A stretch of DNA of 64,000 bases, from positions 623 through 64,622 of the forward strand of contig DASYUV010000252.1 of assembly GCA_036000865.1 (NCBI GenBank). Direction: 5' to 3'. This document shows positions 31,939 through 55,468 of the stretch, in pieces (the first letter of the stretch is position 1; each line of letters opens with the position of its first letter). The position numbers were made by a program, and so were the translations under genes. Source of the DNA: Candidatus Binatia bacterium. Lineage in GTDB: Bacteria > Desulfobacterota > Binatia > UBA9968. The notes under the pieces are model-generated. The model ran no database searches and was not told the origin of the DNA. It saw only the letters and a program-made list of their open reading frames with translations.

Positions 31939-32439
31939 ATGACGGGTGAAGCAAGCGAAGCCATTGTTAGAGGACTCAAGTCTGCGGGCGTAGACCTGGT
32001 TGCTATCCTACCCGATCACGGGTTCGATCGAGTTCAAAAGGAAATTGCTGAAGATGACCGGTTCACGTTTGTTCCTGTCAGCAACGAAGGAATCGGCGCG
32101 GGAGTGTGTGCAGGAGCTTTTTTTGGAGGTAAGAGCCCTGCGCTGATGATTCCGACTTCCGGTTTCTTGGTCGCGGCCTGGCCGCTGGCCAGCCTGCATA
32201 ATCTATGGAACATCCCTCTCCTATTATTGATTCCGTATCGCGGTGATGTGGGAGACGCGCAGCCGGTCATGAGGACTTACAAGTTTACGACTGAGCCCAT
32301 ATTGCGTGATTTACAGATTCCGTACGTTCTCGTGAGCGAGGTGTCAAAGGTCGAGGGCGCCATCAAAGATGCAGTGGCGTCCGCTTTTGCTTGGCAAAAT
32401 CCAATCTGTCTGTTGTTTACAGGGGAGACTCTGCGATGA
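31939..32439 (+). CDS. Split ThDP decarboxylase alpha subunit (alpha-3)
   Basis: 166 aa with the VSNEGIGAGVCAG motif. It is the closest paralogue of alpha-2. Confidence 0.8.
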   Translation: MTGEASEAIVRGLKSAGVDLVAILPDHGFDRVQKEIAEDDRFTFVPVSNEGIGAGVCAGAFFGGKSPALMIPTSGFLVAAWPLASLHNLWNIPLLLLIPYRGDVGDAQPVMRTYKFTTEPILRDLQIPYVLVSEVSKVEGAIKDAVASAFAWQNPICLLFTGETLR

Positions 32440-33071
32440 AGAGAATTGATTGTCTTAAGGCGCTAGCAGAAATTACCAAGGAAGACGATCTGGTCGTCAC
32501 CAATTTAGGGAATACTCCACACGAATGGCTTTCCGTAAGGCCTTCGAGGGCGAACCTGTACGGGATGAATTTGGGGCAGTGTACGCCGGTGGCTTTGGGG
32601 CTTGCTCTGGCTTTGCCTCACCGGAGGGTTTTTGCGCTCGACGGAGACGGCAATCTCCTTCTGAATTTGGCCTCTTTGGCGGATACCGCCTATCGCAAAC
32701 CGTCAAATCTGAGCATTATTGTTTTTGACAATGAAGCCTATGAATCGCCTGGGGGAATGCCCACCGCAACGGCCCACGGCGTTGATTTAGTTCAGGTGGC
32801 TAAGGGATGCGGTATTAAGAAAAGCTTCACGGCGAGCACCCTCGACGATTTCCGAGAAAGGATCAAGCTTTTTGAGGAAAAAGAGCTGTGTTTTATTGTG
32901 GCGAAAATAGAAACCGGCACGATCGAGAGACCTCCTTATGCGAGTCTGGACTATAAATTCAACAAGTATCTTTTTGCCACCTATATCGAGGAAACAGAAA
33001 AGAAGCCCGTGCTCAGACTGCGTTCCAAATCTCCATTCACGAACCGATTAGATCCGGAGAAGCAAGTCTAG
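32436..33071 (+). CDS. Split ThDP decarboxylase beta subunit (beta-3)
   Basis: ATGA overlap with alpha-3. It has LDGDGN-x24-FDNE and the tail NKYLFATYIEETEKKPVLRLRS. Confidence 0.8.
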   Translation: MKRIDCLKALAEITKEDDLVVTNLGNTPHEWLSVRPSRANLYGMNLGQCTPVALGLALALPHRRVFALDGDGNLLLNLASLADTAYRKPSNLSIIVFDNEAYESPGGMPTATAHGVDLVQVAKGCGIKKSFTASTLDDFRERIKLFEEKELCFIVAKIETGTIERPPYASLDYKFNKYLFATYIEETEKKPVLRLRSKSPFTNRLDPEKQV

Positions 33072-34372: not shown

Positions 34373-34882
34373 ATGAAAGAAACTGTAGCGAGTGAAGTTG
34401 TTGAAGGACTGAAGGACGCGGGGATCAAGTTTGCGTCCTTTTTGCCCGATAGCTGGTTGAGGCCGATTTACTCGCGGCTGTCGCAGGACCCACGTTTCAT
34501 CACAATCCCTGTCTCCAACGAGGGAGTCGGCGTTGGACTGTGCTGCGGGGCCTGGCTGGGTGGTATAAAAGCGGTGATGTTGATGGAGAATACCGGCGTG
34601 CGCATGGCCTGTGATCAACTCGCGCGTCTCGGGATCAGTGTGGGGCTTCCCTGTTTCATGATCATTCCGTACCGGGGAGATATTGGCGACAGCCAGACCT
34701 ATGCCGTAGCGCATGGCCAGACCATGCTTCCGGTTCTCGATGCGCTGCGCATACCTTACTATATAGTGCGCGAGGAAAACCGGATTCGCCAGTCCATCCG
34801 TCGGTGTCTTAAGACGTTGAGCGTCACCAACTATCATGTGGCCATGGTCATGGGCGCCGAAGTCTGCGTCGAGAATCTTTGA
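34373..34882 (+). CDS. Split ThDP decarboxylase alpha subunit (alpha-4, divergent)
   Basis: 169 aa with the VSNEGVGVGLCCG motif. Confidence 0.75.
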   Translation: MKETVASEVVEGLKDAGIKFASFLPDSWLRPIYSRLSQDPRFITIPVSNEGVGVGLCCGAWLGGIKAVMLMENTGVRMACDQLARLGISVGLPCFMIIPYRGDIGDSQTYAVAHGQTMLPVLDALRIPYYIVREENRIRQSIRRCLKTLSVTNYHVAMVMGAEVCVENL

Positions 34883-34902
34883 CGGAGGAGGAGAGCTTCC
34901 TT

Positions 34903-35496
34903 ATGGAAAGAATCGATTGTCTAAAGGCGCTGGTCCCCTATATTAAAGATCAGTTGGTCGTAATCACTTTGGGCCGGACGTCGCTGGAATGGGCCGAAGT
35001 CTGCCCGCGTGAGGGCAACATGTTCAACTCGGGAATGGGTAATCATATTCCGGTTGCTTTGGGATTGGCGAAAGCGCTCCCGCATCGTCAGATTATTCTT
35101 CTGGACAGTGACGGAAGCGTCCTTATGTTGCTTTCAGCCCTGACGACCTTGGGATCGTATCCGGCGCCAAACTTGAAGGTTTTTGTCTTCGACAACGAAG
35201 CTTATGAGGGAAGCGGCGGCCAGCCCAGCGACACGTCCCGGGTGACGGACATTGCGGCCATGGCGCAAGGCGCCGGTGTGTGCGGAGCACTAACGGTCAA
35301 AGACTTGGATTCGTTTAACGCCGCGGCGCGCGACGCCTTGACCAAGGAGGGAATGACTTTCATCGTGGCCAAAATCGAACTGGCCAAGGGACCGGCGCCG
35401 CGCAAGGATGTCGGTCATAAGGAAGGTCTTCTCCAGTTTGTCAGATACGTCGAGAAAACCGAGAATATAGCGGTCCTCCATCGCGAGCATTATTGA
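34903..35496 (+). CDS. Split ThDP decarboxylase beta subunit (beta-4, divergent)
   Basis: ATG at 34903 after GGAGGAGGAG. It has LDSDGS-x24-FDNE (SDG instead of GDG) and the tail LLQFVRYVEKTEN. Confidence 0.75.
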   Translation: MERIDCLKALVPYIKDQLVVITLGRTSLEWAEVCPREGNMFNSGMGNHIPVALGLAKALPHRQIILLDSDGSVLMLLSALTTLGSYPAPNLKVFVFDNEAYEGSGGQPSDTSRVTDIAAMAQGAGVCGALTVKDLDSFNAAARDALTKEGMTFIVAKIELAKGPAPRKDVGHKEGLLQFVRYVEKTENIAVLHREHY

Positions 35497-35587: not shown

Positions 35588-36568
35588 TTACTTGAAAACG
35601 CGGTCGAGAAAACCGCTCTGATCCAATTCCTTCAGATAACGCGCTTCGATAAAATCTTGCGGCTTGTATTTTTTGGCGATGGGGTCGCGAATGGCAATGG
35701 CGTCCAAAACCGCCTGCATTCCCTTTTCGCTCGCGTAAGGCTTTCTGGGCAGGATCTTGAGCAGGTAATCGTAAGTTTCGTCCAGCGCTTCCCGGTCTTC
35801 GAGACGCATCCACTGTCTCAAGGTGGCGAGGCTTTCTTCTTTGTTCTTGTGAATATAAGCGATACCTTCAACGAAGCCCCTCAGGACGTTGAGGACCGTC
35901 TGCTGATTTTTCTGCGCAAAATCGAGAGTCGTATCAATGGAATTATAGGCCCACGTGATGCCGGCTTCTTGAAAACTGGCGATCTGATTGAAGCCCATCT
36001 TTCTCGCGGTTACGGTGAGCGGGGGAGAAATAACTGTGGCATCGACCGAGCCGGACCGTAGCGCAGAAAAGCGGGCGGTCTGATCTCCGATACCCAATAT
36101 GACCGCCTCCTTTTCCGGGTTGATCCCCATGTTCCTTAACGCGATTCTGAGAGACAGATCGGATACGGATCCGAGCCGGCTAATCGCGAACTTCTTCCCT
36201 TTGAGTTGAGCTGCGGACTTGAGCGGCTGAGAAGAGACCAGCGTGTAGGGCAGCGAATCGATGAATACCGCCAGGGTCGCCGTTTCCGCGCCGCGCATCT
36301 TGGCATCGACAATGGAACTGGTTCCTCCAGCGTGAAACTGGACGGAACCCGAGAGCAAGGTCTGGACCGCGAGAGGCCCGCCCTGGATCGTAATTACTTC
36401 GGTGTCCAATCCGTGTTTCTTAAAAAGGCGCCGATCTTGCGCGACCCAAAGCGGCAACAGTTCGCCGCTCAATCCGGCGCTTGCGATGCGGACAGTTGCG
36501 GCGTCAGCATGGGACAAAACCGAGAAGACGGATAATACCAACACAAGGCCGAGCAAGATCCGTCGCAT
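35588..36568 (-). CDS. NMT1/SsuA-type solute-binding protein (SBP-7)
   Basis: ATG at 36568 after GGAGGG. Signal peptide MRRILLGLVLVLSVFSVLSHADA/AT and the AISRLGSVSDL motif. The 81-codon upstream extension of the track ORF runs through a REP element and is not credible. Confidence 0.8.
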   Translation of the reverse strand: MRRILLGLVLVLSVFSVLSHADAATVRIASAGLSGELLPLWVAQDRRLFKKHGLDTEVITIQGGPLAVQTLLSGSVQFHAGGTSSIVDAKMRGAETATLAVFIDSLPYTLVSSQPLKSAAQLKGKKFAISRLGSVSDLSLRIALRNMGINPEKEAVILGIGDQTARFSALRSGSVDATVISPPLTVTARKMGFNQIASFQEAGITWAYNSIDTTLDFAQKNQQTVLNVLRGFVEGIAYIHKNKEESLATLRQWMRLEDREALDETYDYLLKILPRKPYASEKGMQAVLDAIAIRDPIAKKYKPQDFIEARYLKELDQSGFLDRVFK

Positions 36569-36665: not shown

Positions 36666-36693
36666 TTGAACCTTGAACGTTGAACTTTTGAAC
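36666..36693. repeat. Tandem TTGAACN heptads (second copy)
   Basis: TTGAACCTTGAACGTTGAAC (36666-36685) is identical to 28487-28506, followed by TTTTGAAC. It abuts the hydantoinase A stop codon. Confidence 0.7.
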
Positions 36694-38159
36694 TAATTAT
36701 ATAAAGACTGACTGCCGAGCTTTCTCGGAACATAACGACCCACGGGGTCGCCGACCATTTCCATGCTATTGCTTCTGTTTGACCACTCGGCGACGACGTT
36801 GCCACGGACAATCGTCATCACCGGCCAGCCGGTGAACTCCCATCCCTCATAGATGGACCATCCGGAAGAAGTGTAGAGCATGTCCGGCTTCACGGTGGCT
36901 TTCTTGTTCAAGTCCACAATCACGATATCGCCATCAGAGCCTACCCGAATCGTGCCTTTTTTGGGAAACACGCCGAACACTTTGGCGTTATTTTCACAAC
37001 AACACTCCACCATTCGCTCCAAGGAAATCCGTCCCTGGTTGACTCCTAAGCTGAGCATCACTTGCAGATACGCTTCGACACGGGATGAGAAACCGCTGAC
37101 GCTCTTCCAGACATCGCCTTTGACTTCCATCTCAGCACGCGGGACTCCATGGTTGACGTGATCCGTGCCAACACAGTGAATTCTTCCCTCTCTTAGTCCC
37201 GTCCAAATTCTTTCGATGGTCTCTTTGCTGCGAAGGGGAACATTGAGCTTCCAGGCGTCCTTAGCGAGAGAGAGGTAACAAGGAGCTGTTTGAGCGTAAA
37301 CTGTTAAACCGTCCTTGCGCGCTCTCTCCACTTCATCCATGGTCTCATCACACGTGCAGTGCTGGATGTAAAGCGGGCATTTCAGCAATCCGGCGAAATA
37401 CGCAAACTGCCGGACATGGGCCGCCTCCGCGAAATGCGGCGACCGGTCATCCCAGGCGCCGATATCCATGCGCCCCTGTTTTCTGAGTCGCTCCTCGAGA
37501 ACTCGAACAATGCCCCAATTTTCGCAGTGGAGGCTGACGATGCATGGAGCCCCAAGCCGTGCCACATGTTCCATGCCCCGGTAAACCGTGCCGTCATCGA
37601 AGCCGAAAAATCCCATTCGCTTCTGCGAGAGCCAGCCAGAATTTTCCGGGCGCATCATATGGAGGTAGTATTTGAACGAGGTGATACCGAACTTTTCCGC
37701 GTATTCCGGAATCTCCTCGGCCTGGCCATCGTTGGCGAGGATCGGCGTCAAAAAGAAATCCACGCGCGAATGTTTCTCACCGGCATCTTTGAAGTTTGGG
37801 AACACGTCCTTGAAAGAGACAATATCGTTGGGATTATTCTCCAGCTTGTGCTTCATCTGCATGTTGGGGCTGGTAAGCTGCATGCCCCAGGTAGTAACGC
37901 CGGTAGAAGCGGCGGCCTTGGTTTCGCTGATGAGATCGTCGGTGATCGGCCGGTGAATTCCCAGATGGACCTCGGGATCGATCAAACCTGGAAGAATGTG
38001 TTTTCCGCCGACGTCAATGATCTTCTGCGCGTCAGGCAACGCGGAGTCTTTGCCGACGGCGATAAATTTGCCGTCTTTTATCGCCACGCCACCTTCGATG
38101 ATACCCTGTGAGGAAACGATTTTTCCGTTCTTGACGACCAAGTCAGCGCGCTCGGCCAT
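36693..38159 (-). CDS. Hydantoinase/dihydropyrimidinase-like cyclic amidohydrolase (Hyd-A)
   Basis: ATG at 38159 after GGAGGA. Motifs present: DPEVH (in place of DxHxH), SFKYY (carbamylated-Lys position), HCEN, YIQH and GTDH. Confidence 0.8.
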   Translation of the reverse strand: MAERADLVVKNGKIVSSQGIIEGGVAIKDGKFIAVGKDSALPDAQKIIDVGGKHILPGLIDPEVHLGIHRPITDDLISETKAAASTGVTTWGMQLTSPNMQMKHKLENNPNDIVSFKDVFPNFKDAGEKHSRVDFFLTPILANDGQAEEIPEYAEKFGITSFKYYLHMMRPENSGWLSQKRMGFFGFDDGTVYRGMEHVARLGAPCIVSLHCENWGIVRVLEERLRKQGRMDIGAWDDRSPHFAEAAHVRQFAYFAGLLKCPLYIQHCTCDETMDEVERARKDGLTVYAQTAPCYLSLAKDAWKLNVPLRSKETIERIWTGLREGRIHCVGTDHVNHGVPRAEMEVKGDVWKSVSGFSSRVEAYLQVMLSLGVNQGRISLERMVECCCENNAKVFGVFPKKGTIRVGSDGDIVIVDLNKKATVKPDMLYTSSGWSIYEGWEFTGWPVMTIVRGNVVAEWSNRSNSMEMVGDPVGRYVPRKLGSQSLYN

Positions 38160-38191
38160 TTTACTTCCTCCGTTTCTTTGCACCCGATCGT

Positions 38192-39685
38192 TTAAGCTTC
38201 TATCGGGTAGGTTGCGTATCCCAGCTTCCTGGCCTGGTACCTTCCTCTGGGCTTACCCACCATGTTGTGCTTCTGTTCCTTCTCATTCCACTCCGAAGCA
38301 ACCTCGCCGCGCAGGATAACCTGATACGGCCAACCCGTGACCCCCCAGCCTTCGAAGACGGACCAGCCGGCAGAAGTTAAGAGCATATCTTTGTCGATCG
38401 TTTGTTTCTTTTTCAGGTCGACCAGTACGATGTCAGCATCGGCGCCCACTCTGAGCACCCCTTTCTTGGGAAAAAGACCAAAAGCCTTGGCCGGATTCTC
38501 GCAACAAAACTCGACGCACCGGGGTAAAGTGATTCGCCCTTTGTTGACGCCTTCGCTCAGCATGACCGGGAGCAGCGCCTCGACGCGAGAGGAGAATCCG
38601 CTAACGGTGTTCCACACGTCACCCTTGATCTCCATCTCCTCCCTGGGAACGCCGTGGTTCACGTGATCGGATCCTGTGCAATCGACATCCCCATTGGCCA
38701 CAGCTTTCCAGAGCTGTTCCATGGTCTGCCGATCTCGTAGCGGGACGTTGATCTTATAAACGTCGTGGTCAAGCGTCAGGTAATGAAAGCCGGTCTCGCC
38801 GATGATTTTGACTCCCTCGCTCCGGGCGCGAATAATCTCATCGATGGTTTCCTGCGTTGTGGTGTGCACGATGTAGAGAGGGGAGTTGGTCACTTTAGCG
38901 AGATAGGCGTACTGGCGCACGTGAGTGGCTTCGACAAAGTGCGGGCACCGTTCGTCCCAGGCCGCGTTATCCTTGCGCCCTTGTTTGATCAAACGCGCCT
39001 GAAGGACGCGAATAATCTCCCAGTTTTCCGGATGAATACAGGTGATGCAGGGAGGACCCAACCATCCGACATGCTCCATTCCAATGTAGACGGTCCCGTC
39101 GTCGAAGCCGTAGATGCCAATCTTTCTCTGCGGTTCCCATTGTCCCAAGGTATCCTGTCCGCGCTTGAGATGAAGATAGTATTTGTAAGACGTGGCGCCA
39201 TATTTCTCTGCCAACAGTGGAATTTCTTCGACCTGGGCGTCGTTGGAGACGAGCGGGGTTAAAAAATAGTCGACCATGGAGTGCGTGTTTCCCAGATCTT
39301 CGTAAATCGACATGACCTGACTGAAAGGCACGCTGTCCTCGGGGTCTTTAAACTTTTTGTAGCCGCGGCTGCGGCTTATGGTGGGGCTGGTCAGCATCAT
39401 TCCCCAGGTAGTTACTCCACCTGCGAGGGCGGCCTTCGTTTCGGAGATGAAATCGTCTTCCAAAGAACGGTGAACGCCAAGGTGCGTTTCCGGGTCCACG
39501 ACACCTGGAAGAACGTAGTTCCCCTTGGCGTCGATGGTTTTCTTCGCCGGGAAGCCGCTCAGATCGGTTGCGATCGCGGCGATCTTTTCGCCTTTGATCC
39601 CGATACTTGAGGATATAATGTCCGGCGGGATAACCAGCTTTCCATTTGTGATTACTAAATCAAACTCCATAGATCCATTGCTCAT
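38192..39685 (-). CDS. Hydantoinase/dihydropyrimidinase-like cyclic amidohydrolase (Hyd-B)
   Basis: DPETH, SYKYY, HPEN, YIVH and GSDH motifs. It ends 8-32 nt upstream of the Hyd-A start (8 nt by the track start at 38183, 32 nt by the ATG at 38159). Confidence 0.8.
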   Translation of the reverse strand: MSNGSMEFDLVITNGKLVIPPDIISSSIGIKGEKIAAIATDLSGFPAKKTIDAKGNYVLPGVVDPETHLGVHRSLEDDFISETKAALAGGVTTWGMMLTSPTISRSRGYKKFKDPEDSVPFSQVMSIYEDLGNTHSMVDYFLTPLVSNDAQVEEIPLLAEKYGATSYKYYLHLKRGQDTLGQWEPQRKIGIYGFDDGTVYIGMEHVGWLGPPCITCIHPENWEIIRVLQARLIKQGRKDNAAWDERCPHFVEATHVRQYAYLAKVTNSPLYIVHTTTQETIDEIIRARSEGVKIIGETGFHYLTLDHDVYKINVPLRDRQTMEQLWKAVANGDVDCTGSDHVNHGVPREEMEIKGDVWNTVSGFSSRVEALLPVMLSEGVNKGRITLPRCVEFCCENPAKAFGLFPKKGVLRVGADADIVLVDLKKKQTIDKDMLLTSAGWSVFEGWGVTGWPYQVILRGEVASEWNEKEQKHNMVGKPRGRYQARKLGYATYPIEA

Positions 39686-40088
39686 TATTGGCTTTTCCTT
39701 TCTACAAAATCATAGTTACAAACCAATGATAAATTTCCACTTTGTCTTACGGGAGGTATAACATGAAACTTTCATTGTCAATTTGAAAATCGTAAAACTG
39801 AAATTGAATAAAATTTAAGCTGACTCACTCCCGGCTACAAGCTAAAAGGTGCAACCCCGGTCGGCCCGAAGGCGTCTGATGATCGGTGAGTAGTCGAAAC
39901 GATCGGTGTGCATTGTCGCGCTCCTCTATCGAACGAGTTAGACGAAAGCTATGACAGCCGGGATCGACTCGTCGAAGCGAATTAATCCTAATCTTGCATT
40001 ACCACAATGTGTGAGTAACAAAACCTAGTCAAATATATTTGAAATTTCGGTTGCTCATTGGATTGCAGAATCGGAAAAGAGATGGCTC

Positions 40089-40164
40089 GCGCAAAGACGC
40101 AAAGCACGCCAAGTTCGGAGGAGTAGAAAAATATCTTACTTTGCGCTCTTGGCGCCTTGGCGCG
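40089..40164. repeat. REP/MITE-like inverted repeat (GCGCAAAGACGCAAAG...CTTTGCGC...TTGGCGCG type)
   Basis: GCGCAAAGACGCAAAGCACGCCAAG faces CTTACTTTGCGCTCTTGGCGCCTTGGCGCG with partial complementarity, inside a 750-bp non-coding region. Confidence 0.5.
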
Positions 40165-40437
40165 ATATAATTTCTTGAAGTCGTTTTGTTCAAGATTGAA
40201 AAAGCAAGAAACTAGTCCTAATGCGTTGGCAATCTCACCAAGCGATCGCTAAAGCTGCTCCTTTTCTGGCATCCGGCGAGTCCTCTCATACGACCGGCGA
40301 AACACTCATCAAACCATGATGAAAAATGCCTGGGTTAATGACCGCTTTACCGTGGGCCATGTTGGCAGAAAAAGCGAGCTGTGATAGAGGAACAAACCAG
40401 TGAAAAGTGTGGCGATAATTCGGAGGAAATGAGTGTC

Positions 40438-41913
40438 ATGGATGTCGGTGAGATGGACCTGGTGATCCAACATGGGCAGGTGGTAACCAGCAGCGGGGTG
40501 AAGAAGCTGGCAATCGGCATAAAGGATGGGAGGATTGTCGCTTTGACTTCGGGAACCGAATCGCTCCAGGCGCGGCAGACTATCGATGCTGATGGCAAAT
40601 ACGTCTTGCCGGGGATCGTGGACCCGGAAAATCACATGGGAACGCATCGCCCGTTGAAAGACAGCTTGAATAGTGAGACGCGAGCCGCGGCAGCCGGGGG
40701 AGTAACCACCTGGGGAATGATGCAGGCGAGTCCGAAACTCAGAAAAGAGTATATTCACGAGCCTGAAGCGAAAGATGTCGTCCCGTTCTCCCGGGTTATG
40801 CCGGAGTTCATCGAAGTCGTCGAATCACATTCTTTTGTGGATATATTTCTTACTGGGTTTATCACGACCGACGAACAGGCTCTCGACATTCCCAAAGTGG
40901 CCCAAGAATTCGGCGTCACATCCTTTAAATATTATCTTCACATGATGCAGGGAGCACGGACTCAGGCTATGTGGGCCGGGCGAGAGCGAGGCGGGTGGCT
41001 GGGCTTCGATGACGGGACGATTTATTTGGGCATGGAGAAGACAGCTGAGCTCGGACCTCCCGGAATCATCTGTATCCACCCTGAGAACTATGAGATTGTC
41101 CGCTTATTCGAGGATCGTCTCAGGCGGGCGGGACGGACGGACATGGCCGCTTGGGACGAGCGCTCACCCCATTTTTGTGAGGCGGGACATGTAAGGACCT
41201 ATGCTTATTATGCCGGGGTCACCGGCTGCCCGCTCTACGTCGTGCATACGACGACGAAAGAATCGATAGACGAGATCCTCAAGGCCAGAGCCGAAGGCGT
41301 TAAGATCTACAGCCAGACCGGCCACCATTATTTGACACTGTCGCACGACGTTTGGAAGATCAACGTTCCGCTTCGCGACGAAGCCACCATGGCTGCGCTG
41401 TGGGAAGCTCTGCGAGCGGGGCACATCGACTGCATCGGCACGGACCACGTTGATTGGGGAATGTCGCGGGTGCAGATGGATAAAGGCAACGTGTGGGAAA
41501 CCAGCAGCGGCTTTCCTTCCCGCGTGGAGGCTTACTTGCCTGTTATGCTGACCGAAGGACTCCATAAAGGAAAAATTTCCCTGGAAAAGCTAGTCGAGGT
41601 CTGTTGTGAAAATCCTGCCCGAATTTTCGGCCTCTATCCTAAAAAGGGAGTGATCAGCATTGGTTCTGATGCCGATTTTGTCATTGTCGATCTCGAGCGC
41701 ACGGCCCAAGTGAAGCGAGACATGATCTACAGCTCGGCTGGATGGTCGATCTGGGAGGGCAAGGAGCTTAAAGGCTGGCCGGTTATGACGATCCTTCGTG
41801 GAAACGTCATCATGGAATGGCCGGAGGGAGCCCCTCGGGCGAGGATAATGATGGAAGGACCGCAGGGTCGGTATCTTCCGCGCAAGCCGGGCCAAGAGCT
41901 CTATCCAATTTAA
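40438..41913 (+). CDS. Hydantoinase/dihydropyrimidinase-like cyclic amidohydrolase (Hyd-C)
   Basis: The ATG at 40438 lies 11 nt after GGAGG. The track ORF begins at a GTG at 40381. DPENH, SFKYY, HPEN, YVVH and GTDH motifs. Confidence 0.8.
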   Translation: MDVGEMDLVIQHGQVVTSSGVKKLAIGIKDGRIVALTSGTESLQARQTIDADGKYVLPGIVDPENHMGTHRPLKDSLNSETRAAAAGGVTTWGMMQASPKLRKEYIHEPEAKDVVPFSRVMPEFIEVVESHSFVDIFLTGFITTDEQALDIPKVAQEFGVTSFKYYLHMMQGARTQAMWAGRERGGWLGFDDGTIYLGMEKTAELGPPGIICIHPENYEIVRLFEDRLRRAGRTDMAAWDERSPHFCEAGHVRTYAYYAGVTGCPLYVVHTTTKESIDEILKARAEGVKIYSQTGHHYLTLSHDVWKINVPLRDEATMAALWEALRAGHIDCIGTDHVDWGMSRVQMDKGNVWETSSGFPSRVEAYLPVMLTEGLHKGKISLEKLVEVCCENPARIFGLYPKKGVISIGSDADFVIVDLERTAQVKRDMIYSSAGWSIWEGKELKGWPVMTILRGNVIMEWPEGAPRARIMMEGPQGRYLPRKPGQELYPI

Positions 41914-41931
41914 GTTCTCCAGGGAGACTTT

Positions 41932-42903
41932 ATGATTTTGAAATTGCTGTTCGCTGGGATGGTTTTCGCGGCGGCGACGATTTTGGGTGCGGCTCAGGCG
42001 CAGTCGGTTCGGATCAGCTACGGCGGAACTTCGGGATATAACGTGCCCGTGTGGGTGACTCAGGAGGCCGGATTGTTCAAGAAGTACGGATTGAACGCAG
42101 AGCTGATCTTCATCAGCGGCGCCGCTCCTGGCATGCAGGCGATGCTCGCCAACGAGGTCCACTTCGCAAACACGTCAGGGTCGGCGCCTATCAATGCTAC
42201 GCTTCAGGGAACCGATGCCGTCATCATCGCTACGTCATACGATCTGATCCCTTACGGTTTTGTCGTGCATAAAGACATTCATACTCCTGCCGACCTGAAA
42301 GGGAAGATTATCGCGATCTCCCGATTGGGAGGCGTGACCGAGCTCGCCGCCCGAGTAACCTTCGAAAAGTTGGGGTTGAATCCCAAGGACATGACCTTGA
42401 TCCAGGCCGGCCCGGACGCGCAGAGAATTCCAGCCGTTCAATCCGGCAATGCGGCGGCTACGGTGATCGCGCCGCCCGGTCTTTTCGCGGCCGTCGCGCG
42501 CGGCCTGAGAGTTCTGGTTGACCTGACGGACTTGGGGATCAAGTATCCGACGTCTGTTTTCTTTGTCACGCGCTCTTTTCTCATGCAGAATCGGCCAGCA
42601 GTGAAGAAATTTCTAATGGCTTTTACTGACGGACTCCATCTTTACGCGCAGAGGCGGGACTTCGTGCTGCAGGTCATGAAGAAATACACGAAGCTTGATG
42701 ACGCGGACGTTTTGACGAAGTCGCATGATTATTTTGTTAAGAAAACTCTTCTGGTACCGCTGACGGATGCGGCGGCGGTAAAAAATGCCTTGCCGATGGG
42801 AAAGCCGGTCAATCGAAAACTCGAGGACTTTTACGATAATTCGATCGTGCAGGAGCTGATCAGCGAAGGGTTTGTGGAAAAAATTTCTAATGCCTACAAG
42901 TAG
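41932..42903 (+). CDS. NMT1/SsuA-type solute-binding protein (SBP-8)
   Basis: Signal peptide MILKLLFAGMVFAAATILGAAQA/QS and the AISRLGGVTEL motif. Confidence 0.8.
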   Translation: MILKLLFAGMVFAAATILGAAQAQSVRISYGGTSGYNVPVWVTQEAGLFKKYGLNAELIFISGAAPGMQAMLANEVHFANTSGSAPINATLQGTDAVIIATSYDLIPYGFVVHKDIHTPADLKGKIIAISRLGGVTELAARVTFEKLGLNPKDMTLIQAGPDAQRIPAVQSGNAAATVIAPPGLFAAVARGLRVLVDLTDLGIKYPTSVFFVTRSFLMQNRPAVKKFLMAFTDGLHLYAQRRDFVLQVMKKYTKLDDADVLTKSHDYFVKKTLLVPLTDAAAVKNALPMGKPVNRKLEDFYDNSIVQELISEGFVEKISNAYK

Positions 42904-42944
42904 GAAGGCGCTGCATCAATTGACACCAACCCTAGGAGGCAATC

Positions 42945-44396
42945 ATGGCTCAGGTGGAAGTGCTTTTTAAGAATGGAAAGATTGTAACCTCCGGGAAAAT
43001 TATCGAGGGCTTTGTCGCCGTCGAAAAGGAGAAAATCGTCGCCGTCGGCGAGGGAGACGCTGCACCGCAAGCACTGAAGACAATCGATCTTAAAGGTCGC
43101 ACATTGATTCCCGGAGTCGTTGACCCGGAAGTCCATTTTGGCAGCCACCGCTGGGTCGGAGACGAATTCGATTCGGAGACCCGCGGCGCCGCCTCCTATG
43201 GCATCACGACCTGGGGCTTCATGCAGCCCAGCGCCAACATGGGACAGCCGTACAAGGCTGAAAAGACCGAGGAGGAAGTGCCGCTCTATGCCGACGTATT
43301 CGGCCTGTTTCGGGAGCTCGGCGAGGCGCGCTCGATGGTCGATTTTTTTCTCACCCCGAAGATTTTAAAAGACGAACACGCGCTGGAAATTCCGCGGTTG
43401 GCGCGGGACTTTGGCATGACGTCGTTTAAATACCAGCTTCATCTCATGAGCCCGGAGCGTACGGCGACTTACTGGCCCAACCGAAAAAGCCAGGGTTATT
43501 TCGGGTATGATGACGGAACGATTTATCTGGGCCTGGAAGCAGTCGCCAAATTGGGACGCCCCGCGATTGTCTGCATGCACTGTGAGAACTGGGAGATCGC
43601 TCGCATCTTCGAAGAGCGTCTTTTAAAAGCGGGGCGAAAGGAATACCGGGTTTGGAACGAGCGCTCACCGCATTTTTGCGAAGCCGGGCACGTGCGCGCG
43701 TATACGTACTACGCGCGCGTTCTAAAATGCCCGCTTTACATCCAGCACACCACCACTCCGGAAACAATCGAGGAGATCACCAAGGCAAGAGCGGAGGGCG
43801 CTACTGTGTACGCGCAGACGGGGCCTCATTATCTGAGCCTCACCGAAGACATGTGGCGCATCAACGTGCCGCTGCGGAGCGCAGAAACCATCGAGATCCT
43901 TTGGCAGGCCCTGGCGGACGGCCGCATCGACTCGGTGGGCAGCGACCATACGAACACGGGCAGATCACGCAAGGAGATGGAAGTCCCCGGTGATATCTGG
44001 GCAACAAGAACCGGGTTCCCTTCACGGGGAGAGGCGGCCCTGCCGGTAATGCTCAATGACGGCGTGAACCGGGGACGGATTTCGCTCCTTCGGATGGTTC
44101 AAGTCTGCTCGGAGAATCCGGCGCGGATCTTTGGACTCTACCCGAAGAAGGGCGTTATCGCACCGGGGGCCGATGCGGACCTCGTGGTGGTAGACCTGGA
44201 TCGGAAGGTTAAAGTGACCAACGACATGGTTCATAGCTCGGCCGGCTGGACGCTGTGGGAGGGGAGAGAGATGAAAGGCTGGCCCGTGATGACCGTGCTC
44301 CGCGGGAAGACAATCGCGGAGTGGCCCGACGGGGGAAAGAGACCGGAAATCGTCTCCAAGCCGTTCGGTCGCTACCAACCCCGTTCGCTGGGGTGA
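42945..44396 (+). CDS. Hydantoinase/dihydropyrimidinase-like cyclic amidohydrolase (Hyd-D)
   Basis: AGGAGG RBS. DPEVH, SFKYQ, HCEN, YIQH and GSDH motifs. Confidence 0.8.
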   Translation: MAQVEVLFKNGKIVTSGKIIEGFVAVEKEKIVAVGEGDAAPQALKTIDLKGRTLIPGVVDPEVHFGSHRWVGDEFDSETRGAASYGITTWGFMQPSANMGQPYKAEKTEEEVPLYADVFGLFRELGEARSMVDFFLTPKILKDEHALEIPRLARDFGMTSFKYQLHLMSPERTATYWPNRKSQGYFGYDDGTIYLGLEAVAKLGRPAIVCMHCENWEIARIFEERLLKAGRKEYRVWNERSPHFCEAGHVRAYTYYARVLKCPLYIQHTTTPETIEEITKARAEGATVYAQTGPHYLSLTEDMWRINVPLRSAETIEILWQALADGRIDSVGSDHTNTGRSRKEMEVPGDIWATRTGFPSRGEAALPVMLNDGVNRGRISLLRMVQVCSENPARIFGLYPKKGVIAPGADADLVVVDLDRKVKVTNDMVHSSAGWTLWEGREMKGWPVMTVLRGKTIAEWPDGGKRPEIVSKPFGRYQPRSLG

Positions 44397-44535: not shown

Positions 44536-45888
44536 ATGACAACTCTCCTTGAACACGCCACCGTCGTCACGATGAATGCGAAGAAGGAGATTCTCCAAGA
44601 CAGCCATGTGCTAATTCAGGATGGTCGGATTGCGAGTGTGGGGCTTGCGGAATCTAGCAAAGCCGATCAAGTCATCGATTGCCAGGGTAAGATTATTATC
44701 CCTGGCCTTGTAAGCGCTCACTCCCATCTCACAGGATTGCTTCAACGAGGGTTGTGGGATGAGAACAGTTTCGAATCCTGGTCGCGGAAATCTACGGCAA
44801 CGGAAAAGTCATTTCAGGCTTTTCCGGAGGACATCTATGCGCTCCATTGTGGAGCTTGTGTGGAGTTCATCAGGCATGGTGCAACGACGGTTCTCAACAT
44901 GTTTACCGTTTCCTCGCACGTCCCGCTGGAATTGATCGATGCTTCGTGTCGCGCGCTCCGGGATAGCGGAATCAGGGGCATTCTAGCGCTTTCGGTCAAA
45001 GACCAATCGCCGGACAATCCGGCCATTGGTCTTGATTCTATTGATGCCGAATTCTGGAGTGCGCGAGCCAAGGAAGCCGCCGCGTGTGTCAGCGACTTTG
45101 GCCCGAGAGTATCCTTCATGCTGGCGCCTTCAGCGCCTCAACGCTGCAGTGACAACCTCCTGATACGATGTAAAGACCTAGCGGAAGAGCTCGGAGTGGG
45201 TGTTCACACACACCTTGCCGAAACCAAATCTCACGCGCGTGTGGCAAGAAGTCTCTATGGACAGCCGATGGTAAAGCATCTGGAGAAAATCGGCTTTCTT
45301 GGGCCTCATCTCTCCGTGGCGCACTCGATCTGGTTGGATGAAGAAGAAATTGACATCTTGAGTCGCTATCGGGTTAACGTCGTTCATAATCCATCGAGCA
45401 ATATGAAGCTCGGCAGTGGAGCCGCCGGAGTCAAAAAGATGCTCGACCGAGGTATCACCGTTGGACTAGGAGCAGACAGCGTGAATGCGGGCACCGTTTA
45501 CTCAATCTTCGAGCAAATGAAACTATCAGTGTTGCTACCAAGGGCCGTTTGGGAACCCGAGGATTGGATTTCGCCTGACGAGGCGTTTGAAATGGGATGC
45601 CTCGGCGGAGCCAGAGCCATGCTTCTAGGCGATGAAATCGGGTCGATTGAAGAGGGAAAGAAAGCCGACCTCGTGGTGCTGAAACTTTCGACCAGCCTTT
45701 TGCCAGCAAATAATCTGACAGCGCAGCTTGCACTGTCTGAGGGCGGTGAGTCTATTGAGACCGTTTTCGTCGACGGAGAGCCTATTTTGCTTAACGGGCG
45801 TTTCACGAAGATCGATGAAGATGCCGTTCTTGAAGCGCTTTCATCCTTCACACCCAGAATCGCCGCAATCAATGCTTCGTTCCGCTGA
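44536..45888 (+). CDS. TRZ/ATZ-family amidohydrolase (aminohydrolase/deaminase/chlorohydrolase type)
   Basis: PGLVSAHSHL (HxH), GVHTHLAE and GLGADS motifs. The length and layout match SsnA / MTA-deaminase / AtzA-like enzymes. Confidence 0.75.
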   Translation: MTTLLEHATVVTMNAKKEILQDSHVLIQDGRIASVGLAESSKADQVIDCQGKIIIPGLVSAHSHLTGLLQRGLWDENSFESWSRKSTATEKSFQAFPEDIYALHCGACVEFIRHGATTVLNMFTVSSHVPLELIDASCRALRDSGIRGILALSVKDQSPDNPAIGLDSIDAEFWSARAKEAAACVSDFGPRVSFMLAPSAPQRCSDNLLIRCKDLAEELGVGVHTHLAETKSHARVARSLYGQPMVKHLEKIGFLGPHLSVAHSIWLDEEEIDILSRYRVNVVHNPSSNMKLGSGAAGVKKMLDRGITVGLGADSVNAGTVYSIFEQMKLSVLLPRAVWEPEDWISPDEAFEMGCLGGARAMLLGDEIGSIEEGKKADLVVLKLSTSLLPANNLTAQLALSEGGESIETVFVDGEPILLNGRFTKIDEDAVLEALSSFTPRIAAINASFR

Positions 45889-46006: not shown

Positions 46007-47479
46007 CTACGGCACAAACCGCAAGGGTAGTCCTTTTGCAGCGAAGGACTTTTTGTATAGCTCACGAATCGTTCGGTGGGAACGATCCGGCTTGTTTTTG
46101 ATGCGACCGTAGAGGCGGTACATTGTTTTGCTGATCGGTTCCACCCTCCGGATCAGGGCGTCCTCGTCAACATTGGTGAGACGGCCGCCCTCCAGTACCA
46201 CCTTGCCGTCTACCAGAACCGTGTCCACCGACTGACCTCCTTCACAGAAGACCAGTTGGTGGACGATATCCCTTAGCGGACGAAGTTGAAGGCTGGGTTT
46301 TAATAAAAGAAGGTCAGCACGGTAACCAGGTTTGATCTTGCCTATTTTGCCGCGCCACGCGGGAATAGCTTGGGCCCCGTTGACGGTTCCCATCCTGAGG
46401 GCATCCAACGCGGTAATCCAGGTTTCGGGATCTTCCGCAGCGATCCGTGATAGAAAAGCAGCCAATCGCATTTGCTCGAAGATCGAATAGCTATCGCTCG
46501 TGTCGCCACCGTCGGTGCCGAGAGCCACATTGACCCCGCGGGCTTTCAATTTGGCAACGGGCGCAACGCCGCTTCCGAGTTTGAGATTACTGGCCGGGTT
46601 ATGAACGACGCTCGCTCCGGATGATGCTAAAAGATCCATTTCTCTCTCGTCCAGCCAAATGCTATGCGCCGTTGAAACCCGCGGTGAGAGAAATCCAATA
46701 TCCGCAAGGTGAGCGCATAGAGTTTTTTTATAAATCTTGTGGGCCGCCCATGCTTGCAGTCTCGTCTCCAAAAGGTGCGTGTGAATCCCCAGGTCAAATT
46801 GCTCAGCAACTTTGACGACTTCTCGGAGCAGCTCGTCGCTGCAGTTCATCGGCGAAGAAGGCCCAAGCATGATGCCAGAGGGAGTAGGGGAGCGACGAAG
46901 ACGCGCGAGAACCGTGAGCACTTCCTCTTTCCAAGGCTCCGGCGAAGCCTTCTGAGCCGCCTTTTTGCCGTTCTGTTGCGTTGCCAAGCGAATAAAATCT
47001 TGATCGCGCAGCGAAGGAACCAGCATTCCCCGGATGCCGGTTTTTTCGAACGCGCCAAGAATAGCTTCCATTTTGCCTACGCTGAGCCCGGGCCGCGTGG
47101 AGAAATGATCTACAACGGCCGTCACTCCGTTCTTAAGCATTTCGGAACAAGCCAGCTCCGCTGCGGTTCCAATCTCCTCGGCCTTCAAATGCGCGAGGTC
47201 TTCCGTCGTAGCCCTATAGCCGCGCCAGATTTCCATCCGCACGTTATCGCGAAAGCTTTTTTGGAGAATCTCCGTCAGGTGAGAGTGAGCGTTAACCAGG
47301 CCCGGCATGACAATCATTTCCGAGCAGTCAATTCGCCTTGTGATTGGAAGCCCTCTTGTGTGAATCTTCCTTCCCACCTGAGCGATGGTGCCCTCGTGAA
47401 TGAGAATCTGCTGCGCTTCGAGAATGGGCTTCGAGGCGTTTAGAGTGACAAGGGATGCATTTTCCAACAGGATCGCCAT
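46007..47479 (-). CDS. TRZ/ATZ-family amidohydrolase, second copy
   Basis: PGLVNAHSHL, GIHTHLLE and LGTDGG motifs. The ATG at 47479 (MAILLENASLVT) is preferred over the GTG at 47521. Confidence 0.75.
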   Translation of the reverse strand: MAILLENASLVTLNASKPILEAQQILIHEGTIAQVGRKIHTRGLPITRRIDCSEMIVMPGLVNAHSHLTEILQKSFRDNVRMEIWRGYRATTEDLAHLKAEEIGTAAELACSEMLKNGVTAVVDHFSTRPGLSVGKMEAILGAFEKTGIRGMLVPSLRDQDFIRLATQQNGKKAAQKASPEPWKEEVLTVLARLRRSPTPSGIMLGPSSPMNCSDELLREVVKVAEQFDLGIHTHLLETRLQAWAAHKIYKKTLCAHLADIGFLSPRVSTAHSIWLDEREMDLLASSGASVVHNPASNLKLGSGVAPVAKLKARGVNVALGTDGGDTSDSYSIFEQMRLAAFLSRIAAEDPETWITALDALRMGTVNGAQAIPAWRGKIGKIKPGYRADLLLLKPSLQLRPLRDIVHQLVFCEGGQSVDTVLVDGKVVLEGGRLTNVDEDALIRRVEPISKTMYRLYGRIKNKPDRSHRTIRELYKKSFAAKGLPLRFVP

Positions 47480-47588
47480 AAGCTTTGTCTTCTCGCGTGG
47501 TGAAATTCTTGTCGAAGGCACCTATTATTCAGGATTAACAGCACTTTCGGAGCGAATACTTTCGGGCGAAGCGGCAGGCCTCTGCGGT

Positions 47589-48729: not shown

Positions 48730-50160
48730 TTACAAAAGTATGTGACGCCATTTTTCGGTTACTTTGGCTCGCTCTTCCGGCGTCAGCGCATGGTCCTTTG
48801 AGAAGTCTTTGATCCAGCGAAATGGCCGGCAGGCGTCGATAATGGCGCGCGAGTTGGTGAAATCGCCCTGACTTCTTTGCTCCGGCGGAATCCTGGGATC
48901 GATCGGGCTGCTCCAGCATCCGCGCACGATCTCGATAGATGTTTCCGGGTCGCACCTCGTAGCAATCGCCCACAAAACATCGGCCATGTTGGACGGGTCG
49001 ATGTCGTCGTCAACGACAATCACGAAGCGTCCCAAGTATCCGCCCTCACGGGCACCAAGGGCTACATGAGCCGCCTGGCGCGCGTGGCCGCCGTAGCGTT
49101 GCCGCAGGGAGATGACTTGTAAGAATCTCATGCCGGATTCGAGTTGCCATACGCCCTTGACGTCGGTGACGCCGCACTTTTCCAGTTCGTTCCAGATTTC
49201 GGCGGATCGAAAAAGCAGCGACAGGTAACTGTCGAGCGGATAAATTTTTAGATCTCCAACGACCGTGATGATCGGATCCGTGCGGTAATAAATTCGTTTG
49301 ACGTGAATGACCGGGGCAGGGCGGGTGGCCGAGGCGTAGTAGCCGGTCCATTCACCAAAGGGGCCTTCGGGCCTCGACTCTACATCAGGAGGCGGCATCT
49401 CGCCTTCCAAAACGATTTCCGCGTGCGCCGGAATCGGTAGCCCCGTATGCTCGCCGGTAACAACTTCAAATGGCTTGCCGGCGACATGACCGGCAAAGTC
49501 GTATTCCGACACTCCCCATGGAAGCCCCAGAGATGCCGCGGCAAAAAGGACCGGCTCAATGCCGCACACAACCGCTACAGGGCAGGCCTGTTTTTTCATC
49601 CAATATTGCTCGGCGATTAGCCGTGTTTGTTTGCCGGGAGAGATGTAAATGCTCACAACCGCAGGCTCTTGGAGCTGCACTCTGGCGGTGCCGAGATTGA
49701 CCCAATTTCCTTCCGGATCTTTTGTGATGACCGCATCCTGTGTGCCGATGTATTTTCCGCCGTCGTCCTTGTGGAGCTTGGGTGCGGGAAATTTGAAAAC
49801 GTCGATATCTTGTCCCCGGAGGACGTGTTCCGTGATCGGCCCCGAAGTAACTAGTTTGGGCGGAACGGGCTCATGGTCTTCCATCCGTTTGCGAATCGCG
49901 TCGACCAGGGCAGGTCCTCTCAGAGTAGCGTTAACTCCCAACGACTCGGCGGTCCGGCGTTGAGTTTGAAACATGTTGATCAGAACCCGGTAGCCATCGG
50001 GGTAACCTTTAATCTTGTCGAACAGTAAGGCCGGCGGCTCCGTTCCCAAACCGGAAACCTCGGCCAAGGCGCCGATGTCAAGATCCGCGTCCGCGCCTTC
50101 GACTATCTTCAATTGGCCGTTGGCCCGCCAATCCTCTATCAATCCTCGCAAGTCGCGCAT
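48730..50160 (-). CDS. UbiD-family decarboxylase (UbiD-3)
   Basis: EGPFGEWTGYYAS motif. It is a paralogue of UbiD-1. Confidence 0.8.
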   Translation of the reverse strand: MRDLRGLIEDWRANGQLKIVEGADADLDIGALAEVSGLGTEPPALLFDKIKGYPDGYRVLINMFQTQRRTAESLGVNATLRGPALVDAIRKRMEDHEPVPPKLVTSGPITEHVLRGQDIDVFKFPAPKLHKDDGGKYIGTQDAVITKDPEGNWVNLGTARVQLQEPAVVSIYISPGKQTRLIAEQYWMKKQACPVAVVCGIEPVLFAAASLGLPWGVSEYDFAGHVAGKPFEVVTGEHTGLPIPAHAEIVLEGEMPPPDVESRPEGPFGEWTGYYASATRPAPVIHVKRIYYRTDPIITVVGDLKIYPLDSYLSLLFRSAEIWNELEKCGVTDVKGVWQLESGMRFLQVISLRQRYGGHARQAAHVALGAREGGYLGRFVIVVDDDIDPSNMADVLWAIATRCDPETSIEIVRGCWSSPIDPRIPPEQRSQGDFTNSRAIIDACRPFRWIKDFSKDHALTPEERAKVTEKWRHILL

Positions 50161-55359: not shown

Positions 55360-55468
55360 GGGGAACTCCTTTCGTTCGCGGCAAAGTTTGCGGTTCGCGG
55401 TCGAACCAGAACGCGCTAGTCATTTTATAGACTGTAATCCGTCTTAGAGCCACGCTAGCTATTTCGCC

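Follow-up and report, generated by a model that had tools for sequence, protein, structure and literature searches.

Can a binuclear cyclic amidohydrolase give up the first histidine of its H-x-H metal-binding motif and still be a selected enzyme rather than a decayed one? This question is raised by four hydantoinase/dihydropyrimidinase-like paralogues, here called A to D, that all read E-x-H instead. They are encoded in a stretch of 64,000 nucleotides from a Candidatus Binatia bacterium (GenBank assembly GCA_036000865.1, contig DASYUV010000252.1, positions 623 to 64,622 of the forward strand), which we refer to as the window. In the following, we present evidence that the glutamate marks a distinct subfamily and discuss which reaction its members may catalyse.

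The four paralogues and their motif

An earlier note, made from the letters of the window, had described four genes for proteins of about 480-500 amino acids (aa) with DPE.H motifs, arranged in two head-to-head operons. The open reading frames (ORFs) are found as placed there. On the minus strand, B (38192-39685, 497 aa) lies 32 bp upstream of A (36693-38159, 488 aa), while C (40438-41913, 491 aa) and D (42945-44396, 483 aa) are encoded on the plus strand. The operon structure also agrees, i.e., B-A-(binding protein) and C-(binding protein)-D-(amidohydrolase) diverge from a spacer of about 750 bp. All four reading frames are intact, each is preceded by a Shine-Dalgarno-like sequence, and pairwise identity among the proteins is 52-55%. 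Only for C are two starts possible: GTG at 40381 would yield a protein of 510 aa and ATG at 40438 (with GGAGGA upstream) one of 491 aa, and both occur among public gene calls. Homologues favour the 491-aa form. A profile built from A to D finds no fifth paralogue in the window; two other ORFs of 509 and 483 aa in it encode a UbiD enzyme and RsmB, respectively.

In cyclic amidohydrolases, the buried alpha metal is bound by the H-x-H pair, a carbamylated Lys and an Asp, and the beta metal by the same Lys and two later His. The paralogues share the motif PG(L/V/I)(I/V)DPE(V/T/N)H, which reads DPEVH, DPETH, DPENH and DPEVH in A to D. Its Glu is encoded by GAG or GAA and is thus two nucleotide changes away from a His codon. 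The ligand positions, together with an inserted Arg discussed below, are E63 (37971-37973), H65, K163, H211, H267, D333 and R360 in A; E66 (39488-39490), H68, K168, H218, H274, D340 and R367 in B; E64 (40627-40629), H66, K164, H214, H270, D336 and R362 in C; and E62 (43128-43130), H64, K162, H212, H268, D334 and R361 in D.

Position of the glutamate

The earlier note had placed the Glu at the first His of H-x-H, with the Lys, two His and the Asp kept, and three independent alignments agree with this assignment. A phmmer search of D against all PDB sequences pairs DPEVH with DEHVH of L-hydantoinase (1gkr), DVHTH of D-hydantoinase (1nfg) and DPHVH of 1gkp. A profile of 20 clade members yields a full-length alignment to 1nfg and 1k1d with the Glu in the same register; here, TSFKY falls on SFKVF/SLKVF (the Lys), HCEN on HAEN, PLYIQH on PIYIVH and GSDH on SSDH. 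Finally, we aligned A to D with 134 full-length cluster representatives using MAFFT (n=138). The first-His column then holds 125 His, 11 Glu and 2 Gln, and the Lys (TS[FY]KY), the two His (H[CP]EN and PLY[IV]xH) and the Asp (G[TS]DH) fall in conserved ligand columns that are essentially invariant. A register shift that would restore a His at the first position is ruled out, since pairwise, profile and 138-sequence alignments all give Glu. With regard to the other ligands, the beta-4 Lys, which can be carbamylated, is conserved without exception in the column expected for it, and the beta-5 His, beta-6 His and beta-8 Asp (H211, H267 and D333 in A) align to ligands of PDB structures.

The same picture emerges at the level of structure. 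The AlphaFold2 model of C (predicted local distance difference test score 92.9, predicted template modelling score 0.93) shows a (beta/alpha)8 barrel with a composite beta-sandwich domain, in line with the Pfam families PF01979/PF07969. E64/H66, K164, H214, H270 and D336 lie at or just past the C-terminal ends of the beta-strands 60-66, 162-165, 210-213, 266-268 and 332-334, i.e., at the sites expected for amidohydrolase ligands. In a Foldseek search, the model superposes on D- and L-hydantoinase, dihydropyrimidinase and allantoinase structures with template modelling (TM) scores of 0.81-0.90 at 24-28% identity.

A distinct clade under purifying selection

Next to the position of the Glu, we examined its spread. 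The 120 best homologues of C share 50-91% identity with it, and the 115 full-length proteins among them all carry D-x-E-x-H. A second search with a divergent actinobacterial seed gives D(S/T/P)E(A/S/G)H in 115/118, where the remaining three failed the motif match. For a joint conservation set we aligned 231 full-length members covering the Binatia/Chloroflexi-type and the actinobacterial subclades. Within this set, E63, H65, K163, H211, H267 and D333 (numbered as in A) never vary (231/231); that is, H-x-H, the hallmark of cyclic amidohydrolases, is replaced by E-x-H in A to D and in every member.

The clade is also clearly separated from its relatives. A profile search of 1.84 billion cluster representatives returned 21,464 relatives (E <= 0.001), of which the best 150 were inspected. 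Among these, Glu is confined to the clusters with the highest scores (at least 551 bits), while the next ones (at most 497 bits) are all H-x-H. Species genomes from GTDB show the same gap, with at least 598 bits for E-x-H against at most 497 bits for H-x-H proteins. The former gap was measured with a profile built from A to D (A1), the latter with a profile A2; A to D themselves score 910-937 bits against A1, which is circular given the origin of that profile. A neighbour-joining tree places the Glu proteins in a single clade. We define clade members as proteins that reach about 550 bits or more against the A1/A2 profile and combine D-x-E-x-H with T138, the inserted R360 and W434; A to D carry these signature residues.

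Orthologues in other metagenome-assembled genomes (MAGs) point to strong constraint on all four paralogues, with ratios of nonsynonymous to synonymous substitution rates (dN/dS) of 0.04-0.09. For A (95% identical to its orthologue in locus L007) the ratio is about 0.05, for B about 0.09, for C (91%, L010) about 0.07 and for D (95%, L008) about 0.04. Hosts of the clade are Binatia, often labelled as 'Deltaproteobacteria' MAGs, Chloroflexota/Dehalococcoidia and Actinomycetota. Cultured hosts comprise Conexibacter woesei DSM 14684 (CP001854.1, 4625700-4627208), several Streptomyces and Spirillospora.

Taken together, the E-x-H proteins form a distinct, monophyletic and selected subfamily, and the Glu is not decay. 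This conclusion, which had been suggested before from the four paralogues, is well supported because of the 231/231 invariance, the monophyly with its score gap and the dN/dS values. The survey further ties the E-x-H variant to three bacterial groups and to recurrent partner genes (see below).

A Q-x-H offshoot of two metagenomic cluster representatives (P0145, P0232) is nested within the E-x-H clade. In terms of codons, Gln lies one step from His and one step from Glu. Both proteins still carry the clade markers T138, W176, R360 and W459 but have lost further ligands (Lys to Ala, beta-6 His to Gln or Asn, Asp to Leu) and are, judged by these losses, probably non-catalytic derivatives. The offshoot thus exemplifies real decay in this family, in contrast to the E-x-H members.

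Relation to annotated families

None of the established families accommodates the four paralogues. They score 234.8-255.6 bits against the D-hydantoinase/dihydropyrimidinase model TIGR02033 (cut-off 393.25), 196-226 bits against the allantoinase model TIGR03178 (cut-off 357.85), 163-189 bits against the dihydroorotase model TIGR00857 (cut-off 279) and 155-200 bits against the ErtD models NF058538/9 (cut-offs 600-650), i.e., they are members of none of them. We found no NCBIfam equivalog that covers the clade and no PDB entry within it; the best PDB match reaches 300 bits, compared to at least 550 bits within the clade. Nor did we find a paper on E-x-H cyclic amidohydrolases in a literature search of partial coverage, with subscription papers mostly outside. 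A cluster look-up of divergent representatives returned only metagenomic proteins without names. The clade is thus probably uncharacterised, with xanthinase (see below) as a caveat. Source annotations are generic ('dihydroorotase', 'dihydropyrimidinase', 'amidohydrolase family protein') and probably wrong in detail.

Remodelling of the active site

The Glu does not come alone. T138 at the end of beta-3 is specific to the clade, while 76/125 H-x-H relatives have His at this position. Four residues after the Lys (Lys+4, position 167) we find His in the Binatia/Chloroflexi type and Gln in the actinobacterial type, compared to Ala or Gly in other relatives. The neighbouring Lys+5 Tyr (position 168), which belongs to the K-x-F-M-A-Y of hydantoinase structures and is present in 74/138 representatives, is lost in the clade and replaced by M/L/C/S/A/T. 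A clade-specific insertion bears W176. In the 'IPNG' loop, the Asn is changed to Ser/Thr and followed by a one-residue insertion, the invariant Arg R360. W434 and W459 further distinguish the clade.

Tyr and Asn of hydantoinases and dihydropyrimidinases contact the substrate. Going by the aligned residues, the active site of the clade is remodelled, which is more than a point mutation. Given the invariant Arg inserted here, the substrate may be anionic and carboxylated.

Partner genes across the clade

We compared partner genes within 10 kb of 24 E-x-H loci with those of 59 H-x-H loci. An isochorismatase-like gene, usually directly downstream, is present at 13/24 E-x-H loci but only at 5/59 H-x-H loci. 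Differences in the same direction are observed for deaminase-type (COG0402) amidohydrolases (14/24 vs. 10/59), UbiD (7/24 vs. 2/59) and NMT1-type binding proteins (12/24 vs. 5/59).

Parts of the window arrangement recur elsewhere. The B-A tandem (36693-39685 in the window) is kept as orthologous pairs in at least two other Binatia MAGs, L005 (9980-12967) and L007 (9983-12969). Since both B and A keep all ligands, a hetero-oligomeric enzyme is possible. The block D/amidohydrolase/amidohydrolase/NMT1/UbiD/NMT1 is kept in the Binatia MAG L008, and the arrangement C-(NMT1-type protein)-D is also found in L087-L089. Actinomycetota and Chloroflexota show a different unit, i.e., an E-x-H enzyme, an isochorismatase-like hydrolase (overlapping or abutting) and a deaminase-type amidohydrolase. 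This unit is found in Streptomyces (L083-85), Conexibacter (L086), the actinobacterial MAG L015 and the Chloroflexi locus L002, often near a CN-hydrolase, an adenosine deaminase, an IclR regulator and a sugar/nucleoside-type ATP-binding cassette (ABC) transporter. In the 5.36-Mb genome L001, one copy leads an E-x-H/amidase/CN-hydrolase operon, and another adjoins UbiD, a three-subunit molybdenum hydroxylase (Mo-hydroxylase) and a binding protein.

The closest H-x-H sisters (L022, L023, L025, L026 and L028; about 37-38% identical, motif DPHTH(I/P)GG) adjoin UbiD, isochorismatase-like, Mo-hydroxylase, thiamine-diphosphate (TPP) enzyme or NMT1 genes. As they share the same partners, the pathway setting or reaction type is probably older than the His-to-Glu change. 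The wider group that includes these sisters, i.e., beyond the E-x-H clade, is without assigned function.

Two further observations concern the actinobacterial and Chloroflexi loci. A protein of about 320 aa stands beside the E-x-H cassette at two actinobacterial loci and one Chloroflexi locus (L015:8888-9850, L016:12335-13360, L086:14581-15540). The versions in L015 and L086 share 53% identity. The protein matches DUF5591 weakly and carries the ArcS C1-domain signature PC-X3-KPY-X2-S-X2-H, exactly in L015 and L016 and in degenerate form in L086. The ArcS core acts on the preQ0 nitrile (PMC10516641), so the resemblance hints that the actinobacterial cassette may handle 7-deazaguanine-type bases. 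The window holds no such ArcS-like protein. In Streptomyces (L083/L084/L085:5800-9400), the cassette lies next to, and divergent from, genes for GTP cyclohydrolase I, 6-pyruvoyltetrahydropterin synthase (PTPS)/QueD, a radical S-adenosylmethionine (QueE-like) enzyme and RimK. The same cluster encodes a leucine carboxyl methyltransferase (LCM)-type enzyme, AsnB and a nonribosomal peptide synthetase module, followed downstream by 3-ketoacyl-acyl-carrier-protein synthase III (KAS III), an acyl-CoA dehydrogenase, an aminotransferase and an ATP-grasp enzyme. The gene content of this neighbouring set resembles that of a biosynthetic cluster of deazapurine or pterin type; we found no match for it in the literature.

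Proposed function and alternative explanations

Given these observations, we propose that the clade members are functional, metal-dependent lactam/ureide ring-opening hydrolases of N-heterocycle catabolism with an alpha-metal site retuned by the Glu. We hold this with somewhat better than even confidence, and we infer catalysis, metal ligation by the Glu, metal identity and substrate class from sequence. The chemistry would most likely still be amide hydrolysis: a metal-activated hydroxide would attack the ring carbonyl and open a cyclic amide or ureide in a hydantoinase-like manner. Substrates would be N-heterocycle lactam or ureide rings (nucleobase-like purine, deazapurine or pyrimidine-type), possibly carboxylated. 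These would be taken up through NMT1-type binding proteins, and neighbouring Mo-hydroxylases and deaminase-type amidohydrolases would create the oxo (lactam) or ureide rings. Once the ring is open, isochorismatase-like, CN-hydrolase or amidase enzymes would act on the ureido or amide group of the product, and/or UbiD enzymes would take off a ring carboxylate. Judged by analogy, such a scheme would mirror the XdhD/SsnA/HyuA uric-acid pathway and the clostridial xanthinase route.

Within the active site, the Glu probably takes the place of the His as ligand of the buried alpha metal, by analogy to known carboxylate-x-His sites. The resulting alpha site would be more anionic and 'harder' and may prefer Mn/Fe-type metals over Zn. 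This expectation is supported by two precedents, i.e., the Mn bound by Glu8-x-His10 in gamma-resorcylate decarboxylase and the Fe/Mn of D-x-H oxygenases. The pocket would have been remodelled alongside, with the Lys+5 Tyr lost, His/Gln at Lys+4 and the invariant Arg inserted.

Several points weigh against this proposal. The function of every clade member is predicted. No isochorismatase, CN-hydrolase or amidase gene is found beside the quartet in the window, where the nearest isochorismatase is 34 kb off. Taxonomy is a partial confounder of the context comparison. Binatia genomes are so rich in NMT1, UbiD and TPP-enzyme genes that the partner association may in part be lineage background. Finally, substrate hints depend on the lineage, i.e., ArcS-like/deazaguanine and adenosine deaminase in Actinomycetota vs. 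Mo-hydroxylase/UbiD in Binatia, such that the clade may have several substrates.

A bolder version of the ring-opening proposal seems unlikely to us. Here, the Glu, in combination with the missing Tyr, the His/Gln at Lys+4 and the Arg, would form an Fe/Mn-type alpha centre that hydrolyses aromatic, non-reduced N-heterocyclic lactams directly, i.e., xanthinase-like and without O2 or reductant. Candidate rings would be of xanthine-, 7-deazaxanthine-, uracil- or lumazine-type. Together with UbiD, a ureido hydrolase of the isochorismatase-like kind would complete a new nucleobase/deazapurine route common in soil Binatia, Chloroflexota and Actinomycetota.

Could the paralogues be ordinary D-hydantoinases or dihydropyrimidinases of the reductive pyrimidine pathway, in which Glu is a neutral substitute for His? 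TIGR02033 is indeed their top NCBIfam model, hydantoinases and dihydropyrimidinases are the top structural matches, and a CN-hydrolase (beta-ureidopropionase/carbamoylase family) is present at some loci. On the other hand, 235-256 bits are far under the 393-bit equivalog cut-off, and the whole clade has exchanged the Lys+5 Tyr and the NG-loop Asn, both found in the aligned hydantoinase structures and in the majority of H-x-H relatives. If the swap were neutral, 231/231 invariance would not be expected when two nucleotide changes are required, no dihydropyrimidine dehydrogenase was seen beside the genes, and four copies per locus do not fit either. We thus regard this explanation as quite improbable.

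We give similarly little credence to a site in which the Glu is no metal ligand, i.e., a mononuclear site that uses the beta position only, or a reorganised one with the Glu as general base or second-shell residue. The amidohydrolase superfamily includes mononuclear subtypes, a mono-metal dihydropyrimidinase is found in the PDB (4h00, 'mon-Zn'), and the second-shell positions T138 and H/Q167 change along with the Glu. Yet the Lys and the beta-8 Asp, which build the alpha site, are invariant, which is unexpected if this site were abandoned, and so is the His that forms the second motif residue.

A changed chemistry, e.g., at a dinuclear Fe/Mn centre with redox activity or by some other non-hydrolytic reaction, is very unlikely. 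A beta-1 carboxylate-x-His is the hallmark of PF04909 dinuclear oxygenases (PMC13154177), and Rieske proteins and ferredoxins are encoded in the gene island around the quartet and in L002. A to D, however, belong to PF01979/PF07969, show no PF04909 match and contain no D.PH.[DE], i.e., the oxygenase motif D-x-P-H-x-D/E is absent. The hydrolase ligand set, with the Lys, is fully kept in A to D, and the closest H-x-H sisters lie in the same hydrolase-rich neighbourhoods. We thus rejected an oxygenase as main explanation on account of the wrong Pfam family, the absent motif and the hydrolase-type neighbours common to the H-x-H sisters. Hardly credible, finally, are non-catalytic pseudo-enzymes of the collapsin response mediator protein (CRMP/DPYSL) or PyrC' type, given five other invariant ligands and strong purifying selection despite the shared fold of human CRMPs and the ligand-less Q-x-H offshoot, or biosynthetic dihydroorotases, given scores of 163-189 bits where the cut-off is 279, the presence of four copies within catabolic operons and no pyr genes nearby despite the NCBI names 'dihydroorotase' or 'dihydroorotase family protein' of some members.

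Ligand variation across the amidohydrolase superfamily is already well known; a fixed swap in a textbook binuclear site is a biochemical lead. Here, H-x-H, taken as hallmark of binuclear cyclic amidohydrolases, is replaced by a fixed Glu in a large selected clade. The clade thereby serves as a natural experiment in which the influence of first-shell ligands on metal preference and on the range of substrates can be followed in an industrial enzyme class (hydantoinase processes), with Conexibacter woesei DSM 14684 and Streptomyces as cultured representatives. The conserved partners, i.e., deaminase-type amidohydrolase, isochorismatase-like hydrolase, UbiD and Mo-hydroxylase, point to an undescribed mineralisation of N-heterocycles in soil bacteria.

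Gene neighbourhood within the window

Both operons of the quartet include an NMT1-type substrate-binding protein. Downstream of A, it is encoded at 35588-36568 (minus strand); the longest ORF extends to 36811 and would overlap A, so the start is likely the internal Met at 36568. Between C and D lies a secreted NMT1/THI5-type protein (41932-42903, plus; Pfam NMT1 4.9e-22) with an N-terminal signal-like sequence. D is followed by a deaminase/chlorohydrolase-type amidohydrolase with canonical H-x-H (44536-45888, plus; Pfam Amidohydro_1 1.6e-54), whose best NCBIfam matches, all below cut-off, are N-ethylammeline chlorohydrolase, 5'-deoxyadenosine deaminase, 8-oxoguanine deaminase and SsnA. A second deaminase/chlorohydrolase-type amidohydrolase (46007-47521, minus), syntenic with L008, is convergent with the D operon. 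Beyond this convergent gene follow a binding protein, a UbiD-family decarboxylase (48730-50160, minus; Pfam UbiD 2.1e-60), which is the closest of three in the window, a Rieske ferredoxin and a further binding protein.

The divergent spacer between the two operons (39686-40437) measures about 750 bp, which shrinks to 695 bp with the GTG start of C at 40381. It has no Rfam match, and promoter, terminator and repeat scans gave nothing above background. Neither a riboswitch nor another RNA that would hint at a ligand was found in the window, where one transfer RNA is the sole RNA detected.

On a larger scale, the quartet sits in an island of about 42 kb (about 10.9-53 kb) that includes three UbiD enzymes, two Mo-hydroxylases, a Rieske oxygenase and an IclR regulator. 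At least 11 secreted NMT1/THI5-type binding proteins are encoded within 40 kb (11629-51812). A search for the LSGGQ signature found no ABC-transporter ATPase across the 64-kb window, and no permease is among the annotated ORFs; that is, the NMT1-type proteins of the window are orphan binding proteins on a large scale. The island encodes at least five split TPP enzymes, and the five located here each adjoin such a binding protein. Four are alpha/beta pairs (13240-14348, 31939-33071, 34373-35496 and 51944-53046) of the sulfopyruvate/phosphonopyruvate-decarboxylase type, with subunits of about 165 and 200-225 aa, and for the fifth only the beta subunit was identified (10926-11549). The pairing of TPP enzyme and NMT1-type protein recurs in L007, L023 and L024.

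A few genes lie at or beyond the island's borders. A luciferase-like, possibly F420-dependent oxidoreductase is encoded at 53070-54095; in Chloroflexota uricolytic clusters, a luciferase-family dehydrogenase stands in for a reductase (PMC12507026). Just outside the island, tandem DUF3891 genes (280 and 281 aa) are found at 54517-56314. At the other end of the window, the isochorismatase-family gene 1526-2251 gives the best RutB/BiuH-like match in the window (115 bits, below cut-off). It adjoins a molybdopterin-biosynthesis-domain gene and is the window's sole candidate for a ureido hydrolase.

Comparison with known systems

The closest characterised relatives are hydantoinases and dihydropyrimidinases, i.e., the L-hydantoinase of Arthrobacter aurescens (1gkr) and D-hydantoinases/dihydropyrimidinases (1nfg, 1k1d, 3sfw, 4tqt, 3dc8). 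They are the best sequence matches of the clade (252-300 bits), share its two-domain fold and have the Lys, two His and Asp at the same positions. The type of reaction is likely the same as well, i.e., the hydrolytic opening of a cyclic amide or ureide. The clade differs by the Glu for the first beta-1 His, by an identity of only 24-28%, by aliphatic or small residues for the Lys+5 Tyr, by Ser/Thr plus an inserted Arg for the NG-loop Asn, and by other gene neighbourhoods. Allantoinase (3e74, 8hfd, 3hm7), dihydroorotase and the hydantoin-5-propionate amidohydrolase ErtD belong to a superfamily branch with the same ligand architecture. In contrast to the clade, the aligned structures of the allantoinase group carry H-x-H, and the clade scores far under the respective equivalog cut-offs. 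CRMP/DPYSL and PyrC' lose several ligands, as does the Q-x-H offshoot P0145/P0232, whereas the clade differs at one position with the other five invariant.

With regard to pathways, the reductive uric-acid pathway combines the Mo-hydroxylase XdhD with SsnA-type and HyuA-type amidohydrolases that open the purine ring, followed by ureido hydrolysis (PMC12507026). The E-x-H loci follow the same gene logic. The Clostridium relatives in our genome scan, a group that includes HyuA-type enzymes, are H-x-H, unlike the clade, and the deaminase-type proteins of the window score below the SsnA cut-offs. The clostridial xanthinase route is said to proceed by ring hydrolysis, ureido hydrolysis and then decarboxylation of a heteroaromatic acid. 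Compared by description, this last step parallels the UbiD association of the E-x-H loci. Xanthinase, as described by Tong et al. in 2023, reportedly occurs in Clostridia and Bacilli; the relatives we found in these two groups are H-x-H only.

For the motif itself, the nearest parallels come from another Pfam family. Gamma-resorcylate decarboxylase binds Mn by Glu8, His10, His164 and Asp287 (PMC8187880), i.e., this enzyme and related Amidohydro_2 decarboxylases have, like the clade, Glu-x-His on beta-1, for which metal binding is proven. Unlike the clade, they belong to PF04909, are mononuclear without a carbamylated Lys and act as C-C lyases. Amidohydrolase-related dinuclear oxygenases (PtmU3, SfbO, DitZ), which are mis-annotated as 'amidohydrolase', show D-x-H on beta-1 with Fe/Mn (PMC13154177). 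Their PF04909 fold, the D-x-P-H-x-D/E motif, the missing Lys carbamate and the oxygenase chemistry set them apart from the clade. What they have in common with it is the swap to carboxylate-x-His on beta-1, which, as these oxygenases illustrate, can define a whole functional class.

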